Of a stretch of DNA of 7,960 nt, positions 1,933 to 7,960 are shown in pieces (within the stretch, counting starts at the first letter, position 1; each line of letters opens with the position of its first letter). The stretch lies in assembly GCA_000004985.1 (NCBI GenBank), contig GG739099.1, one strand, 5' to 3'. The position numbers were made by a program, and so were the translations under genes. This stretch comes from Naegleria gruberi. Lineage: Eukaryota. The notes under the pieces were generated by a model that saw nothing but the letters and a program-made list of their open reading frames with translations, ran no database searches and was not told the origin of the DNA.

Positions 1933-3654
1933 TTACCAATATCCGTCACAACTACATTTACCATCTTTAAAATGGTGATATCTATTTGCATCTCTAATAA
2001 TTATTTCAACATCCATCACTTTTGAAATGAATTCTGTGGCAGTATGACAATCATTGCAAACACGAAGATTTGCCGCTAAAATAATTGATTTTCTCTTTGG
2101 ATTCAAAACAAATGCATGAGCTGTTGCTGTCTTCTCAGCATGTCTACAAAGTGAATCTAATTTTTCTTCTTCAGTTAATAATTTTGAGTTAGTTACCCAT
2201 CTAGTATCTGGCTCAAAACCAGCTTGGATTATTTTTCTGTAAATCTCCTCTCTCATTTTCTCAATTTCCTTAAATCTTTCATATTTTTTTGATCCAGAAA
2301 CAAATTGGTATGATTTACCATCCTCTTCCTGATACACAATTCCTGGTATCTTTTTAATTCCATTTTCAATCATTAATTGTCTTATATTGTCAGCTTTTTC
2401 AACATTATTGAACTTTCTACATCCTGCCATTAAAGCACTCCACAAAGAATAATTCATTCTTTCGTTAATTATTTTTTCTGCCTCATGAAATCTTCCTGAA
2501 CGGGCAAAGACATCAACCATTACACAGTCTACAATTACTGATGGATTATGGTTGTATTTTGTCTTCATTTCTCCATAAAGTTGATTCGCCTCATCAATCA
2601 TTCCACAATGTGAAAATGTGTTCAGCATGATTGTGAATGTGTTCTCGTTCATTTCAACGTTCTTAGCAACCATTTCATTAAATAAATTCATGGCTTGTGT
2701 TCCTTTTCCATGTTGAGCGTAACATGACAACATGTTATTATATGTTATGATGGATAGACGTTTTTGGGCTGATTCTTCGACAAGCTTTTCAAATAGTTGT
2801 TGTGCAGTTGATTGATAAGCAATTCTTGAATAAAAGTAGATCATAACACTGACTATCTCCTCATGAACATCCATTCCTTTTAGTTTGAGTTCATCAATAA
2901 TATCCAGTCCCATCTTTCTAGCAAAATATTCTCCACATCCAGCCAACAATATGAGGTAGGTTATCTTATCTGGTTCAATATGTTCCTTCATCTCATTAAA
3001 AACCACCATTGCTTTGTTCAGTCCATATTCTATTGTAGATGGGTTTTGGGTATTTGTTGTACTTTGAATATGTGCTTGAATTAAACAATTCCAAATAGCA
3101 ACATCGTTCATTAATCCCTTTGATTTCAATTGTTCACATTCCTCAATTGAAACCTCTGGATGTCCACATTTTGTGTAAAAGTTGACAATAGATGCTAAAA
3201 GTTCAGAAGAGTGATCTTTCAAGGTGCCAGTTGCAAGTTTGTGAATTGCCTTTCCTTCTTCAAACAATTTTGAATCAGCACACGCTGTGAGTAAAATGTT
3301 AAAAGTGGTAGAGTTTGGTTCAACACCACAATCTTGCATTTCTGTGATTATTTTAATTGATTTTGGAACTTCCTTAGTTTGAATATGTGCTTGAATTAAA
3401 CAATTCCAAACAGCAACATTGTTCATTAATCCCTTCGATTGTAATTTTTCACATTCTCCAATTGACACCTCTGGATGTCCACATTTTGTATAAAAACTAA
3501 TAATTGATGTCAAAAGTTCAGTAGAGCAATCTTTAACATTTTCTATTGCTTGTTCATGAATCAATTTACCTTCTTCAAACAAATTAAAATCAGTACATGC
3601 CTTAAGTATAATAGTATAGGTTGTAGAATCAGGGTTCAATCCAAATTGTTGCAT
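1933..3654 (-). CDS. PLS-class PPR protein with DYW deaminase domain, C-terminal segment. It contains two full P-L-S triplet repeats plus P2-L2-S2, a short E region and DYW, and has its own stop.
   Basis: 573-aa ORF. Motifs match the plant PLS consensus: P (VWNCLIQAHIQ…EMQDCGVEPN), L (TFNILLTACADSKLFEEGKAIHKLA) and S-like (LLASIVNFYTKCGHPEVSIEECEQL, compare YAKCG). P2 is TYNNMLSCYAQHGKGTQAMNLFNEM, compare WNAMIAGYAQHGHGKEALELFEQM. Then come L2/S2 (CGMIDEANQLYGEM…, VMVDVFARSGRFHEAEKII), an E-like region (LWSALMAGCRKFNNVEKADNIRQLMIENGIKKI) and DYW. The frame is open upstream into the N gap at 3695, so the 'M' at 3654 is an internal Met of a repeat unit. Confidence 0.9.
   Translation of the reverse strand: MQQFGLNPDSTTYTIILKACTDFNLFEEGKLIHEQAIENVKDCSTELLTSIISFYTKCGHPEVSIGECEKLQSKGLMNNVAVWNCLIQAHIQTKEVPKSIKIITEMQDCGVEPNSTTFNILLTACADSKLFEEGKAIHKLATGTLKDHSSELLASIVNFYTKCGHPEVSIEECEQLKSKGLMNDVAIWNCLIQAHIQSTTNTQNPSTIEYGLNKAMVVFNEMKEHIEPDKITYLILLAGCGEYFARKMGLDIIDELKLKGMDVHEEIVSVMIYFYSRIAYQSTAQQLFEKLVEESAQKRLSIITYNNMLSCYAQHGKGTQAMNLFNEMVAKNVEMNENTFTIMLNTFSHCGMIDEANQLYGEMKTKYNHNPSVIVDCVMVDVFARSGRFHEAEKIINERMNYSLWSALMAGCRKFNNVEKADNIRQLMIENGIKKIPGIVYQEEDGKSYQFVSGSKKYERFKEIEKMREEIYRKIIQAGFEPDTRWVTNSKLLTEEEKLDSLCRHAEKTATAHAFVLNPKRKSIILAANLRVCNDCHTATEFISKVMDVEIIIRDANRYHHFKDGKCSCDGYW
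1936..2346 (-). other. DYW-type cytidine deaminase domain, from the PG box to the C-terminus.
   Basis: PGIVYQEEDGKSYQFVSGSK (PG box, compare PGCSWIEV…HVFVAGD). HAE at 2142..2134 (HxE zinc/catalytic motif, compare HSEKLAIAFGLI). CNDCH at 2058..2044 (CxDCH). Then …RDANRYHHFKDGKCSCDGYW followed by the stop at 1933-1935 (compare RFHHFKDGSCSCGDYW). Confidence 0.88.
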
Positions 3655-3694
3655 TTCTGTGATTATTTCAATTGCTTTTTGAGGCTCATTGTTT

Positions 3695-3744
3695 NNNNNN
3701 NNNNNNNNNNNNNNNNNNNNNNNNNNNNNNNNNNNNNNNNNNNN
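3695..3744. other. Assembly gap of 50 N inside the PPR-DYW coding region.
   Basis: Run of n. Reading frames are open on both flanks (…KMKTKG | gap | NNEPQKAIEIITEMQQFG…). Confidence 0.95.
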
Positions 3745-3745
3745 A

Positions 3746-4351
3746 TCCTTTGGTTTTCATCTTTTCAAATTGATCAATAGCTATTATTGGATGTCCGCAT
3801 TTTGTGTAAAAATTAATTATACTATTGTTCAACTCTATTGTAGGATTATTGAGCACTTGACCAGATGCTTGATGCAGTAATTTACCTTCTTCAAATAATT
3901 TTGAATCAGCACATGCTTTAAGTAAAATGTTAAAAGTGGTAGAGTTTGGTTCAATACCATAATCTTGCATTTCTGTGATTACTTCAATTGCCTGTCGAAC
4001 TTCCTTATTTTGAATATATGCTTGAATTAAACAATTCCAAACAATATTGTTCATTAATCCTTTCGATTTCAATTGTTCACATTCCTTAATGGCTGTTTCT
4101 GGATGTCCACATTTTGTGTAAAAGTTGACAATAGATGCTAAAAGTTCAGAAGAGTAATCTTTCAAGGTGCCAGTTGCAAGTTTGTGAATTGCCTTTCCTT
4201 CTTCAAACAATTTTGAATCAGCACACGCTGTGAGTAAAATGTTAAAAGTGGTAGAGTTTGGTTCAACACCATAATCTTGCATTTCTGTGATTATTTCAAT
4301 TGCCTGTCGAACTTCCTTATTTTGAATATATGCTTGAATTAAACAATTCCA
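3746..4351 (-). CDS. Same PPR-DYW gene, middle segment of about two P-L-S triplet units. The frame is open into the 50-N gap on its 3' side, and a frameshift lies on its 5' side.
   Basis: Translation is WNCLIQAYIQNKEVRQAIEIITEMQDYGVEPNSTTFNILLTACADSKLFEEGKAIHKLATGTLKDYSSELLASIVNFYTKCGHPETAIKECEQLKSKGLMNNIVWNCLIQAYIQNKEVRQAIEVITEMQDYGIEPNST…TKCGHPIIAIDQFEKMKTKG, then the gap. In this frame a TAA at 4378..4376 closes it upstream, so homology resumes only from the W codon at 4351. The 'M' at 4282 used by the ORF track is an internal repeat Met. Confidence 0.8.
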
Positions 4352-5393
4352 TCCATAATACTTTTTGATATCTTTTTACATTCATTAATTGCAATATCTG
4401 GATGTCCACATTTTGTGTAAAAATTAATAATTGATGTCAAAAGTTTAAGAGAGCTATTATCTCTCAAAGTATTATTTGCAATTTTGTGAATCAATATTCC
4501 CTCCTTATATAATTTCAACTTAGCGCATGCGGTAAGCAAAATGGAGAATGTGGTAGCGTTTGGAGTAACCTTGAATTGTTTCATTTCAGTAACTGTGTCG
4601 ATGGCTTTTTGTATTTCATTTATTTGAATGTATGCTTCAACTAGACATGTAAAAGAAACAACATTCATTAATCCCTTTGATTTCATCTTTTCACATTCGT
4701 TGATTGCAATCTCTGGATGTCCACATTTTGTATAAAAATTAATAATGGATGTCAATAGTTCAACAGAGCAATTATCTTTCAAAGTGTTAGTTGTAATTTT
4801 GTGAATCAACTTTCCTTCTGCAAATAACTTGGTATTAGCACAAGCTGTTATGAGAATGTTAAAAGTTGCCGAATCTGGACAAATACCATTATCTTTCATT
4901 TCATGAATAACATCAATCGCTTTCTTAATATTGTTCTCTTGAATATATGCTTGAATTAAACTATTCCATGTTATGATTGTCATCCATTTTTGTTGTTTCA
5001 CTAATTCAATTTCTTCTATTACCAACTCTGGTTTTCTTAATTTCAATGCAAATGATATAATTGTCGTTGATAATTGAGGACTTGCTAAATTACTCTTTTT
5101 TACAAGTTGGTAAAGTGTCATTCCAACTTGAATGTTTTTCTTAACAGTGGCTGCTTTTAAAAGTGGGATATAAATTGCATAGTTTGGTTCAATATCTTTG
5201 CCTTTCATATTCAACACAATTGCTAATGCTCTTTCCAAATCATCATTCCAAATACAATTATTAATAAAGTGAGTGTATAAAAATACATTCATTGCGCCAT
5301 GTTGCTCTAATTCATTAACAATTTGTTCACAAAATTCAACTTGNGTATTACCTACAGAGCAAACTTTAAGTATGGCAGTTAATGTAAATAAAT
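4339..5393 (-). CDS. Same PPR-DYW gene, N-terminal-ward segment. It has divergent P-type motifs, then two P-L-S triplets, and ends at a premature stop created by the frameshift. The 5' end is lost in the 1.5-kb N gap.
   Basis: 317-aa ORF from the Met at 5292. The frame stays open upstream to the gap edge (…TAILKVCSVGNTQVEFCEQIVNELEQHGA-MNVFLYTHFINNCIWNDDLERALAIVLNMKGKDIEPN…); the n at 5344 falls in ACN, which is Thr whatever the base. The last S-like motif reads LLTSIINFYTKCGHPDIAINECKKISKSIMDGIV* instead of the canonical …NECEKMKSKGLMNVV…WNCLIQ. That indicates roughly 12 nt missing plus a 1-nt frame change between 4342 and 4375. Confidence 0.8.
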
Positions 5394-6895
5394 NNNNNNN
5401 NNNNNNNNNNNNNNNNNNNNNNNNNNNNNNNNNNNNNNNNNNNNNNNNNNNNNNNNNNNNNNNNNNNNNNNNNNNNNNNNNNNNNNNNNNNNNNNNNNNN
5501 NNNNNNNNNNNNNNNNNNNNNNNNNNNNNNNNNNNNNNNNNNNNNNNNNNNNNNNNNNNNNNNNNNNNNNNNNNNNNNNNNNNNNNNNNNNNNNNNNNNN
5601 NNNNNNNNNNNNNNNNNNNNNNNNNNNNNNNNNNNNNNNNNNNNNNNNNNNNNNNNNNNNNNNNNNNNNNNNNNNNNNNNNNNNNNNNNNNNNNNNNNNN
5701 NNNNNNNNNNNNNNNNNNNNNNNNNNNNNNNNNNNNNNNNNNNNNNNNNNNNNNNNNNNNNNNNNNNNNNNNNNNNNNNNNNNNNNNNNNNNNNNNNNNN
5801 NNNNNNNNNNNNNNNNNNNNNNNNNNNNNNNNNNNNNNNNNNNNNNNNNNNNNNNNNNNNNNNNNNNNNNNNNNNNNNNNNNNNNNNNNNNNNNNNNNNN
5901 NNNNNNNNNNNNNNNNNNNNNNNNNNNNNNNNNNNNNNNNNNNNNNNNNNNNNNNNNNNNNNNNNNNNNNNNNNNNNNNNNNNNNNNNNNNNNNNNNNNN
6001 NNNNNNNNNNNNNNNNNNNNNNNNNNNNNNNNNNNNNNNNNNNNNNNNNNNNNNNNNNNNNNNNNNNNNNNNNNNNNNNNNNNNNNNNNNNNNNNNNNNN
6101 NNNNNNNNNNNNNNNNNNNNNNNNNNNNNNNNNNNNNNNNNNNNNNNNNNNNNNNNNNNNNNNNNNNNNNNNNNNNNNNNNNNNNNNNNNNNNNNNNNNN
6201 NNNNNNNNNNNNNNNNNNNNNNNNNNNNNNNNNNNNNNNNNNNNNNNNNNNNNNNNNNNNNNNNNNNNNNNNNNNNNNNNNNNNNNNNNNNNNNNNNNNN
6301 NNNNNNNNNNNNNNNNNNNNNNNNNNNNNNNNNNNNNNNNNNNNNNNNNNNNNNNNNNNNNNNNNNNNNNNNNNNNNNNNNNNNNNNNNNNNNNNNNNNN
6401 NNNNNNNNNNNNNNNNNNNNNNNNNNNNNNNNNNNNNNNNNNNNNNNNNNNNNNNNNNNNNNNNNNNNNNNNNNNNNNNNNNNNNNNNNNNNNNNNNNNN
6501 NNNNNNNNNNNNNNNNNNNNNNNNNNNNNNNNNNNNNNNNNNNNNNNNNNNNNNNNNNNNNNNNNNNNNNNNNNNNNNNNNNNNNNNNNNNNNNNNNNNN
6601 NNNNNNNNNNNNNNNNNNNNNNNNNNNNNNNNNNNNNNNNNNNNNNNNNNNNNNNNNNNNNNNNNNNNNNNNNNNNNNNNNNNNNNNNNNNNNNNNNNNN
6701 NNNNNNNNNNNNNNNNNNNNNNNNNNNNNNNNNNNNNNNNNNNNNNNNNNNNNNNNNNNNNNNNNNNNNNNNNNNNNNNNNNNNNNNNNNNNNNNNNNNN
6801 NNNNNNNNNNNNNNNNNNNNNNNNNNNNNNNNNNNNNNNNNNNNNNNNNNNNNNNNNNNNNNNNNNNNNNNNNNNNNNNNNNNNNNNNNNNNNNN
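5394..6895. other. Assembly gap of 1502 N. It contains the 5' end of the PPR-DYW gene.
   Basis: Run of n. The minus-strand ORF is still open at 5393. Sequence after the gap (6896 onward) has stops in all minus-strand frames. Confidence 0.95.
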
Positions 6896-7590: not shown

Positions 7591-7959
7591 ATGGATTCTA
7601 AATTAGTTATTCGTGTCTACTTTGTAGATGATTCCTTCAAAACCATTGCCGTTAGTCCAACCATCAGTGCTCGTGATTTATCGATTGTTGTCGCTGATAA
7701 GATTGAATTGGAACAACGTGAAACTTTTGCGCTCTTTTTCTACAAGAACGGAGAGTGTAGATGTTTAGATGATGATGAACAACCGTGCAAATTGATGGTC
7801 TATGAAACTGTTGGTTCTGATGCAGACTTTCAAAAGTATGTGAATGATAAACAAGAATGGGAAAAATTAAAGAAAGACTGGGAGAAGGACTCTAAATTAG
7901 TATTCAAGAGAAGAGTCTTTTTAAAGCACAAGGCAATTCCACGGAACAAGAAAAGTTTT
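7591..7959 (+). CDS. N-terminus of a protein with a ubiquitin-like FERM-N/Ras-association-type fold signature. It continues past the window end.
   Basis: ATG at 7591 is the first Met after an in-frame TAA at 7579. 123 codons follow with no stop to 7959: MDSKLVIRVYFVDDSFKTIAVSPTISARDLSIVVADKIELEQRETFALFFYKNGECRCLDDDEQPCKLMVYET…KLVFKRRVFLKHK. The pattern (β-strand start, 'hot' residue, …LxFKRRxFL) resembles the FERM F1 lobe / RA domain motif (L.F.FR.KFF). It was not in the supplied ORF track, presumably because it lacks a stop. A TATA-like tatataaata sits at 7571-7580. Confidence 0.55.
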   Translation, partial: MDSKLVIRVYFVDDSFKTIAVSPTISARDLSIVVADKIELEQRETFALFFYKNGECRCLDDDEQPCKLMVYETVGSDADFQKYVNDKQEWEKLKKDWEKDSKLVFKRRVFLKHKAIPRNKKSF

Positions 7960-7960
7960 G

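Follow-up and report, generated by a model that had tools for sequence, protein, structure and literature searches.

In plant pentatricopeptide repeat (PPR) proteins, the fifth and last residues of a motif form a code, in which N/D stands for U, N/N and N/S for C or U, T/N for A and T/D for G. Transcription activator-like (TAL) effector repeat arrays are an example of tandem-repeat proteins whose evolution is concerted or proceeds by exchange of units. A DYW-type PPR family is said to have been reported in Naegleria gruberi by Knoop and Ruedinger in 2010. Mitochondrial C-to-U editing occurs at two sites in N. gruberi, which has 11 DYW proteins (PMC4202320). Here, we analysed a 7,960-nucleotide stretch of contig GG739099.1 (the window), the minus strand of which carries an interrupted PPR gene ending in a DYW cytidine-deaminase domain. 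We consider it probable that this locus holds the RNA-binding array of a nuclear PLS-class PPR-DYW gene from a Naegleria-like heterolobosean, the units of which derive from an ancestral unit and are old here, apart from one, unit C, that appears to have been overwritten recently; an editing function would be expected from the family. The locus represents no new kind of system, heterolobosean DYW-type PLS PPR proteins being already known.

Architecture of the gene and state of the assembly

The window is AT-rich (GC 32%, N excluded) and contains a run of 50 N at 3695–3744, a single N at 5344 and a run of 1502 N at 5394–6895. Three minus-strand open reading frames (ORFs) in it, at 4339–5292, 3686–4282 and 1933–3654 (317, 198 and 573 codons), all match PPR families, and three-frame translation showed them to be pieces of a single gene, joined by a frameshift and a gap. 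Pfam searches over the pieces returned PPR_2 (6.8e-46) as well as PPR, PPR_3 and PPR_1, with matches in all three, together with DYW_deaminase (PF14432, 1.2e-33) and a weaker E motif match on ORF 1933–3654. These matches and the unit size of 104–105 codons bear out the initial annotation of this DNA, made from the sequence alone, which had called a PLS-type PPR array. The features are as follows, in gene order, where P0135 is a protein of N. gruberi and 9kfx is a synthetic PPR-DYW structure.

5394–6895, no strand: 1502-N assembly gap, hiding the N-terminus (about 122 amino acids by comparison with P0135, including any targeting presequence)
1933–5391, minus: assembled part of a PLS-class PPR-E-DYW gene, with its stop codon at 1933–1935 and its 5′ end entering the 1502-N gap
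4978–5292, minus: leading diverged triplet Z, with a partial preceding motif at 5293–5391; 49% identical to P0135 residues 124–258
4663–4977, minus: unit A; P 35, L 36 and S 34 amino acids; code pairs P N/D, L N/S and S T/N
4361–4662, minus: unit B; P code pair T/N, S motif truncated
4049–4360, minus: unit C, a mosaic of 312 nt
3745–4048, minus: unit D, cut short at its 3′ end by the 50-N gap
3695–3744, no strand: 50-N gap spanning the D/E junction; the sequence on either side keeps the unit register provided that the gap stands for about 48 nt, or for 48 nt plus a multiple of 315
3418–3694, minus: unit E, its 5′ end, including P-motif position 5, falling in the gap
3103–3417, minus: unit F, 35+35+35 amino acids; near-identical partner of C (290/315 over the whole unit)
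2752–3102, minus: terminal diverged triplet G, the P motif of which carries an insertion of about 10 amino acids (STTNTQNPSTIEYG)
2446–2751, minus: P2-L2-S2 triplet of 35+36+31 amino acids, in canonical plant-like form, aligning to 9kfx
2350–2445, minus: single hybrid E motif (E1 helix A plus E2 helix B), one hairpin in the structural model (helices 402–414 and 418–430)
1936–2349, minus: DYW cytidine-deaminase domain with PG box KKIPGIVY, HAE, CNDCH and the C-terminal CSCDGYW

We therefore read the product as triplet Z, units A–F, triplet G, a P2-L2-S2 triplet, one hybrid E motif and the DYW domain. No stop interrupts the frame up to 5391, next to the 1502-N gap, and the gene therefore lacks its 5′ end. 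The insertion in triplet G (2968–3102, minus) separates the two helices of the final P motif in the repeated series; it has a conserved counterpart in N. gruberi, MSNTHTPSDAEYG, and is predicted as a low-confidence or disordered loop (predicted local distance difference test, pLDDT, below 50 at residues 200–208).

The reading frame switches at the 50-N gap, where a switch is uninformative, and again at about 4352–4362, where ECKKISKSIMD abuts WNCLIQAY and the junction between units B and C is 13 nt short. For this junction (4339–4362) there are three candidate explanations: a true frameshift, a four-codon deletion together with a sequencing error of one base, or a misjoin. A short intron was considered and rejected from the sequence, because the sole frame-restoring GT...AG segment is 29 nt long and would remove the P-motif core WNCLIQA. 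The 50-N run resembles a sized or masked stretch and not an arbitrary spacer, as it lies almost exactly in the repeat register, and extra whole units could be hidden within it. Given the 50-N gap, the frameshift and the adjoining 1502-N gap, the number of units and some of their junctions are unreliable.

Divergence among the repeat units

Tandem Repeats Finder detected a period of 315, with 4.1 copies at 3063–4351 and 1.9 copies at 4370–4952 (68% and 73% matches for the two calls). Anchoring unit starts on the W or F codon at P-motif position 4 and lettering the units in gene order, we obtained six core P-L-S units (A–F) of 104–105 codons, flanked by the diverged triplets Z and G. On the minus strand their starts are spaced by 315, 302, 312, 631 (316+315, two units across the 50-N gap) and 315 nt. 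The period had been described as an exact multiple of three, which holds for the 315- and 312-nt (C-to-D) spacings but fails, as assembled, for the 302 nt from B to C, which alter the frame. Motif boundaries were placed by hand against the land-plant consensus, reportedly that of Cheng et al. in 2016, for a host that is not a plant. Within units A–F, the P motifs measure 35, the L motifs 35–36 and the S-like motifs 33–35 amino acids, only S2 having 31; the S-like motif is accordingly longer than in plants, as noted earlier, although not fixed at 35. The P-L-S order is clear, but this motif exceeds the class length of 31–32 amino acids.

Nucleotide identity among A–F is 62–76% in 14 of the 15 pairs (D/E 66%, D/F 73%) and reaches 92% only between C and F. 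The initial annotation had described near-identical triplets, at least six of them in succession at 90–100% identity; the periodicity stands, whereas the near-identity is confined to a single pair, a result in line with the match values above and with the runs reported below. Its example, 3178–3330 against 4118–4270, does exist as a pair, but at 4121–4273 (151/153), an offset of 943 nt and not 940; at the latter offset only 40/153 positions agree.

Divergence at synonymous sites (dS, Nei-Gojobori) is 0.6–1.7 in 13 of the 15 pairs, 0.50 for C/D and 0.11 for C/F, so most units are old at silent sites. The ratio of nonsynonymous to synonymous divergence (dN/dS) between units is 0.16–0.38 alongside the dS values of 0.6–1.7 and spans 0.16–0.47 across the pairs by the same method, which indicates that the similarity of the unit proteins is maintained mainly by purifying selection. 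At the amino-acid level the units are 47–72% identical to one another, with one pair at 88%, and 48–60% identical to the units of the N. gruberi proteins described below.

These values bear on the possibility that the whole array arose by very recent tandem amplification or is still being homogenised, so that near-identical units would read a simple pyrimidine repeat. The regular period, the 92% identity and 115-nt exact run of C and F, the prevalence of N/N or N/D among the P motifs and the truly high identity (77–97%) of the N. gruberi counterpart units all speak for such an origin. We regard it as highly improbable for this gene, as 14 of the 15 pairs reach only 62–76% with dS of 0.5–1.7, which contradicts recency, the units are about as similar to those of N. 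gruberi as to one another, the P motifs of B and Z carry T/N, and the code residues of the S and L motifs vary between units.

Exchange in unit C

A sliding comparison of the units revealed a mosaic profile for C. Its P-motif part (4273–4351) matches D (3961–4039) at 78/79 nt, and its L-S part (4098–4271) matches F (3155–3328) at 173/174 nt. When the differences of each unit pair were placed at random, only two exact runs were significant, namely 115 nt between C and F (P=2e-4) and 57 nt between C and D (P<5e-5); the remaining pairs share identical runs of 17–34 nt (the longest, of 34 nt, in D/F), mostly at the conserved NFYTKCGHP segment. Low dS together with a long tract is thus found in C/F, and partly in C/D. 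Unit C also has features of its own, including the patch ETAIK at about 4087–4097, its own 5′ junction and single private substitutions, and on account of this private sequence we take it to be a real unit.

From these sequence comparisons, C appears to be the only unit with recent exchange, by gene conversion or unequal exchange, its P motif coming from D and its L-S part from F. Recent amplification or homogenisation had been proposed for the array at large; exchange between units did occur, though recently only in C. As C and F share the code residues at five of six positions, differing in the last residue of the S motif (N vs D), the conversion nearly duplicated one reading triplet. Of nine differences between P motifs of the C/D type and the F type, eight change the amino acid; positive selection was considered on this ground and set aside, the sample being too small for a claim.

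Alternatively, the near-identity of C, the short out-of-frame B/C junction and the gaps could all be artefacts of a short-read or low-coverage assembly, with C chimeric or misplaced. The draft quality is plain from the N runs of 50 and 1502 nt and the single N at 5344, the break in frame coincides exactly with the 5′ edge of C, and the N. gruberi orthologue is likewise split into two models within its array. Against this, C is an exact copy of neither partner and has a private patch, junction and substitutions, and high identity between units is seen independently in proteins from N. gruberi, a eukaryote sequenced in ENA, a fern and a lycophyte. The order C-D / E-F is also unlike a haplotype duplication, with D/E at only 66%: a false duplication of this kind across the 50-N gap predicts that C resembles E and D resembles F, whereas C resembles F (92%). 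We consider such an artefact quite unlikely, and a recent overwriting of C within an otherwise old array the better account.

The Naegleria gruberi counterpart

The nearest relatives of the gene are two N. gruberi proteins, P0001 (822 amino acids, 55–59% identical; EFC49906.1 / NAEGRDRAFT_45424) and P0135 (749 amino acids, 49% identical; EFC49905.1 / NAEGRDRAFT_45423), which are adjacent models on one 1.0-Mb scaffold. By sequence, these proteins and not those of plants appear to be the proper frame of reference. P0135 contributes an N-terminal region, a Z-like triplet and 4.75 units, while P0001 begins in the middle of a unit and contributes 3.75 units and the C-terminus. Together they are collinear with the window gene (55% identical in the C-terminal part, 49% in the Z region), and by this joint collinearity a single PPR-DYW gene has been divided into NAEGRDRAFT_45423, its N-terminal half, and NAEGRDRAFT_45424, its C-terminal half. 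Collinear unique flanks, the shared insertion in the P motif of G and the pairing of the Z triplets indicate that the window gene is the collinear orthologue of this split gene. The split lies inside a near-identical repeat array, which leaves the actual number of units in N. gruberi uncertain as well.

Both genes have the Z triplet, P-L-S units of 104–105 amino acids built around the cores WxCLIQAY and NFYTKCG, a terminal triplet into which EYGLNKA is inserted, P2-L2-S2 and the DYW domain. They differ in their arrays: NAEGRDRAFT_45423/45424 has at least eight units that are 77–97% identical to one another (median 88%), in contrast to six units at 47–72%, with one pair at 88%, in the window gene. 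Only in N. gruberi, then, are units much more alike within the gene than between the two genes. The two also differ in their E motifs, E1 and E2 both being kept in NAEGRDRAFT_45424, and in their P motifs, which are rich in T/D in N. gruberi as opposed to N/N and N/D here.

We built a bootstrapped neighbour-joining tree of the units, including those of the paralogue NAEGRDRAFT_32040, Naegleria lovaniensis, Willaertia and an environmental relative. The Z triplet of the window gene pairs with unit g45423_157 at 100% bootstrap, as expected of first triplets that are positional orthologues. The core units cluster by species, those of N. gruberi in a clade with 89% bootstrap and window units A–F in one with 57.5%, so that the comparison with orthologues suggested in the initial annotation gave the outcome it predicted; both core sets together stand apart from the NAEGRDRAFT_32040, N. 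lovaniensis, Willaertia and environmental units at 73.5%. Grouping by species and not by position is the signature of independent amplification or homogenisation, and because of it we propose that the units descend from an ancestral unit amplified or homogenised within the gene lineage. Sequence divergence indicates that this was recent in NAEGRDRAFT_45423/45424 and old in the window gene, where dS stands near 1 and the units stay similar through purifying selection on their helical scaffold. Unit C was probably overwritten later.

Database searches added no closer relative. The protein databases searched contained no entry identical to the 573-codon ORF, a metagenome scan for orthologues returned only relatives at 26% identity, and a protein search with the N-terminal part found nothing closer than the N. 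gruberi relatives.

P0028 of Naegleria lovaniensis has triplet units of the same type, of 104–106 amino acids, without an E or DYW domain, and P0136 (N. gruberi NAEGRDRAFT_32040) has a two-unit higher-order repeat of about 208 amino acids in which alternate units are nearly identical. At Willaertia magna locus L002 (5064–8427), a separate 295-amino-acid model with faint PPR matches directly precedes the DYW homologue P0140 on the same strand; the two may be another PPR-DYW gene split by annotation.

E motif, DYW domain and structural model

Among solved structures, the C-terminal 389 amino acids match synthetic PPR-DYW 9kfx best (1.9e-98), with the DYW domains 7o4e and 7w86 also found; the HxE, CxDCH and CSCxxYW signatures are all conserved in the alignments to 9kfx and 7o4e. 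The 573-codon ORF was modelled confidently with AlphaFold2 (pLDDT 89, predicted template modelling score 0.83), which gave 12 hairpins from 24 helices and, after them, an alpha/beta domain; the top Foldseek match of this model in the PDB is 9kfx_A (E 9e-30, TM 0.68). The fold, the motif order and the intact active-site signatures of the deaminase are thereby established.

Tandem PPR hairpins and a DYW domain, as in the DYW subgroup of the PLS class, are both present; the P2-L2-S2-E1-E2 extension of that subgroup is incomplete, as E1 and E2 have collapsed into one. Exactly 34 amino acids (E1 helix B plus E2 helix A), the length of one motif, are missing in register relative to P0001, P0002 and 9kfx. 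This appears as a clean 34-amino-acid gap against P0001, and E1 and E2 of 9kfx align to overlapping parts of the window protein. The model stays confident through the deletion.

The gene shares with land-plant PLS PPR-DYW editing factors (OTP86; DYW structure 7o4e) the P-L-S order, P2-L2-S2, the PG box, HxE...CxDCH and the DYW-like end; unlike them, it comes from a non-plant host, has S-like motifs of 33–35 and not 31 amino acids, and has one E motif. The synthetic consensus protein 9kfx, the best match in both sequence and structure, likewise consists of repeated near-consensus triplets that differ mainly at specificity positions. It is designed, however, with units of 101 amino acids and a full E1-E2 pair, and the window units differ at many scaffold positions as well.

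These features also bear on whether the gene is a decaying or non-editing copy, in which a real frameshift and the loss of an E motif disabled editing, leaving residual array similarity or a protein that only binds RNA. The frameshift at about 4352–4362, the 34-amino-acid deletion and the excess of N. gruberi DYW genes over editing sites (PMC4202320) would fit such a history. We think it unlikely, since reading frames of 317, 198 and 573 codons have stayed open in DNA of 32% GC, dN/dS between units is below 0.5, the catalytic and zinc-binding signatures are all intact, and the deletion removes exactly one motif in register, with no loss of model confidence across it.

Code positions and predicted target

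The code residues of the array, given as fifth/last, are as follows.

P motifs: Z T/N, A N/D, B T/N, C N/N, D N/N, E ?/D, F N/N, G N/D, P2 N/N
L motifs, in gene order: N/S, S/S, N/S, N/T, T/S, N/S
S motifs, in gene order: T/N, T/?, A/N, N/?, T/N, A/D

The P motifs had been described as nearly invariant, with N at the fifth position and N or D at the last; this is the case for A, C, D, F, G and P2, while B and Z carry T/N and E is unreadable at the gap. The low-complexity pyrimidine target derived from that description does not survive the T/N pairs of B and Z and the variable code positions of the S and L motifs. If the plant code is applied, the array is predicted to read a sequence rich in U/C and A, with a periodicity of three nucleotides, and not a pure pyrimidine repeat; S motifs with A at the fifth position have no assigned base. 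The P motifs of NAEGRDRAFT_45423/45424 are mostly T/D and T/N, and their P2 is T/D (P0001 read by eye), as opposed to N/N in the window gene. Because these pairs differ, the two orthologues would read different sequences, should the code apply.

The PPR-DYW factors of land plants and 9kfx, which the PDB names as an RNA-bound structure, suggest by analogy how the protein would act. It would be imported into mitochondria, where its solenoid would bind single-stranded RNA, the fifth and last residues of each motif reading one nucleotide. The DYW zinc deaminase would then be placed a few nucleotides downstream (3′) of the bound sequence and convert C to U. The N-terminus of N. gruberi P0135 contains a basic stretch without acidic residues, which is only suggestive of organellar targeting.

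Comparison with other repeat arrays

To place the similarity of the units, we took the best-partner identity of 60-amino-acid windows within each protein, with the following results.

Window gene: median 60%, maximum 97%
N. gruberi 45423: median 87%, maximum 98%
N. gruberi 32040: median 57%, maximum 97%
ENA eukaryote protein P0004: median 58%, maximum 97%
Adiantum and Diphasiastrum proteins: median 57–73%, maximum 75–90%
Angiosperm PLS-DYW proteins: median 23–32%, maximum 37–47%

Unit similarity in the window gene is thus far higher than in angiosperm PLS-DYW proteins and comparable to that in the fern and lycophyte proteins. The premise that successive PLS motifs are diverged in plants is correct for angiosperms, but not for fern, lycophyte and several protist DYW proteins, and given these comparable values, high triplet similarity is recurrent outside angiosperms. 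Our literature search, which did not cover key papers of 2010–2013, found no paper describing high triplet similarity for Naegleria genes, nor any by gene identifiers.

TAL effector arrays resemble this gene in being one-unit-per-base readers of nucleic acid with intragenic recombination and units that group by gene or species; they differ in that the window units are old and that variation in N. gruberi is not significantly concentrated at code positions. TALE-like variation at these positions was considered for the N. gruberi units and not upheld (4 of 6 code columns vs 26 of 98 others, p ~0.06 by hand).

Several observations weigh against the interpretation favoured here. The gene as assembled is not intact, given the B/C frameshift, the 50-N gap and the missing N-terminus, and assembly might, in principle, have produced the close match of C with D and F. 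The clade of window units A–F is weakly supported in the tree and has long branches. Loss of an E motif may shift, alter or abolish the geometry of editing and the positioning of the catalytic site. The plant code applies to heteroloboseans only by extension, and the P2 pair differs between the orthologues. Finally, as 11 DYW proteins are set against two known sites (PMC4202320), many members of the family may not be editing factors. An editing role for the window gene is therefore plausible but far from certain.

Neighbouring features

Other features of the window lie outside the PPR gene, and RNA gene scans found no tRNA and no Rfam match anywhere in it.

13–777, minus: hydrolase of the S15 / CocE-NonD family (PF02129, 1.1e-33), N-terminal part; the N-terminus itself is hydrophobic and signal-like
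1060–1746, plus: 228-codon ORF between the hydrolase and the PPR gene, with no significant Pfam match
7591–7960, plus: start of a gene running off the window, with an RA-like/Ras-association ubiquitin-fold N-terminus (PF21989 3.1e-11, PF00788 1.3e-8)

Homologues of the hydrolase that are named by organism are all bacterial, and most of the matches are metagenome proteins; the protein databases searched contained no Naegleria match and no identical entry for it. Its best match is a 67%-identical fragment on the low-GC metagenome contig L001, which is not syntenic with the window. Judged from its homologues, the hydrolase may be a laterally acquired gene.

Implications for the heterolobosean DYW family

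The window gene adds an orthologue of a Naegleria DYW-type PPR gene. In the heterolobosean DYW family, the unit of duplication and conversion is the whole P-L-S triplet and not the single motif, and the extent of homogenisation differs sharply between the window gene and its N. gruberi counterpart. The pair can be used to ask how PLS arrays change specificity. Since both genes break at the repeat array, counts of DYW genes and of motifs from draft assemblies are unreliable.

A bolder and doubtful extension is that, in the Naegleria lineage, the array of one PPR-DYW gene has been repeatedly rebuilt by whole-triplet amplification and conversion, so that orthologues gain differing, partly periodic specificities or act beyond the two known sites; the array is nearly uniform in N. 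gruberi and a mosaic in the window gene. If true, this would make the gene a natural counterpart of designer consensus PLS arrays, and it could account for the large excess of DYW genes over editing sites in heteroloboseans.

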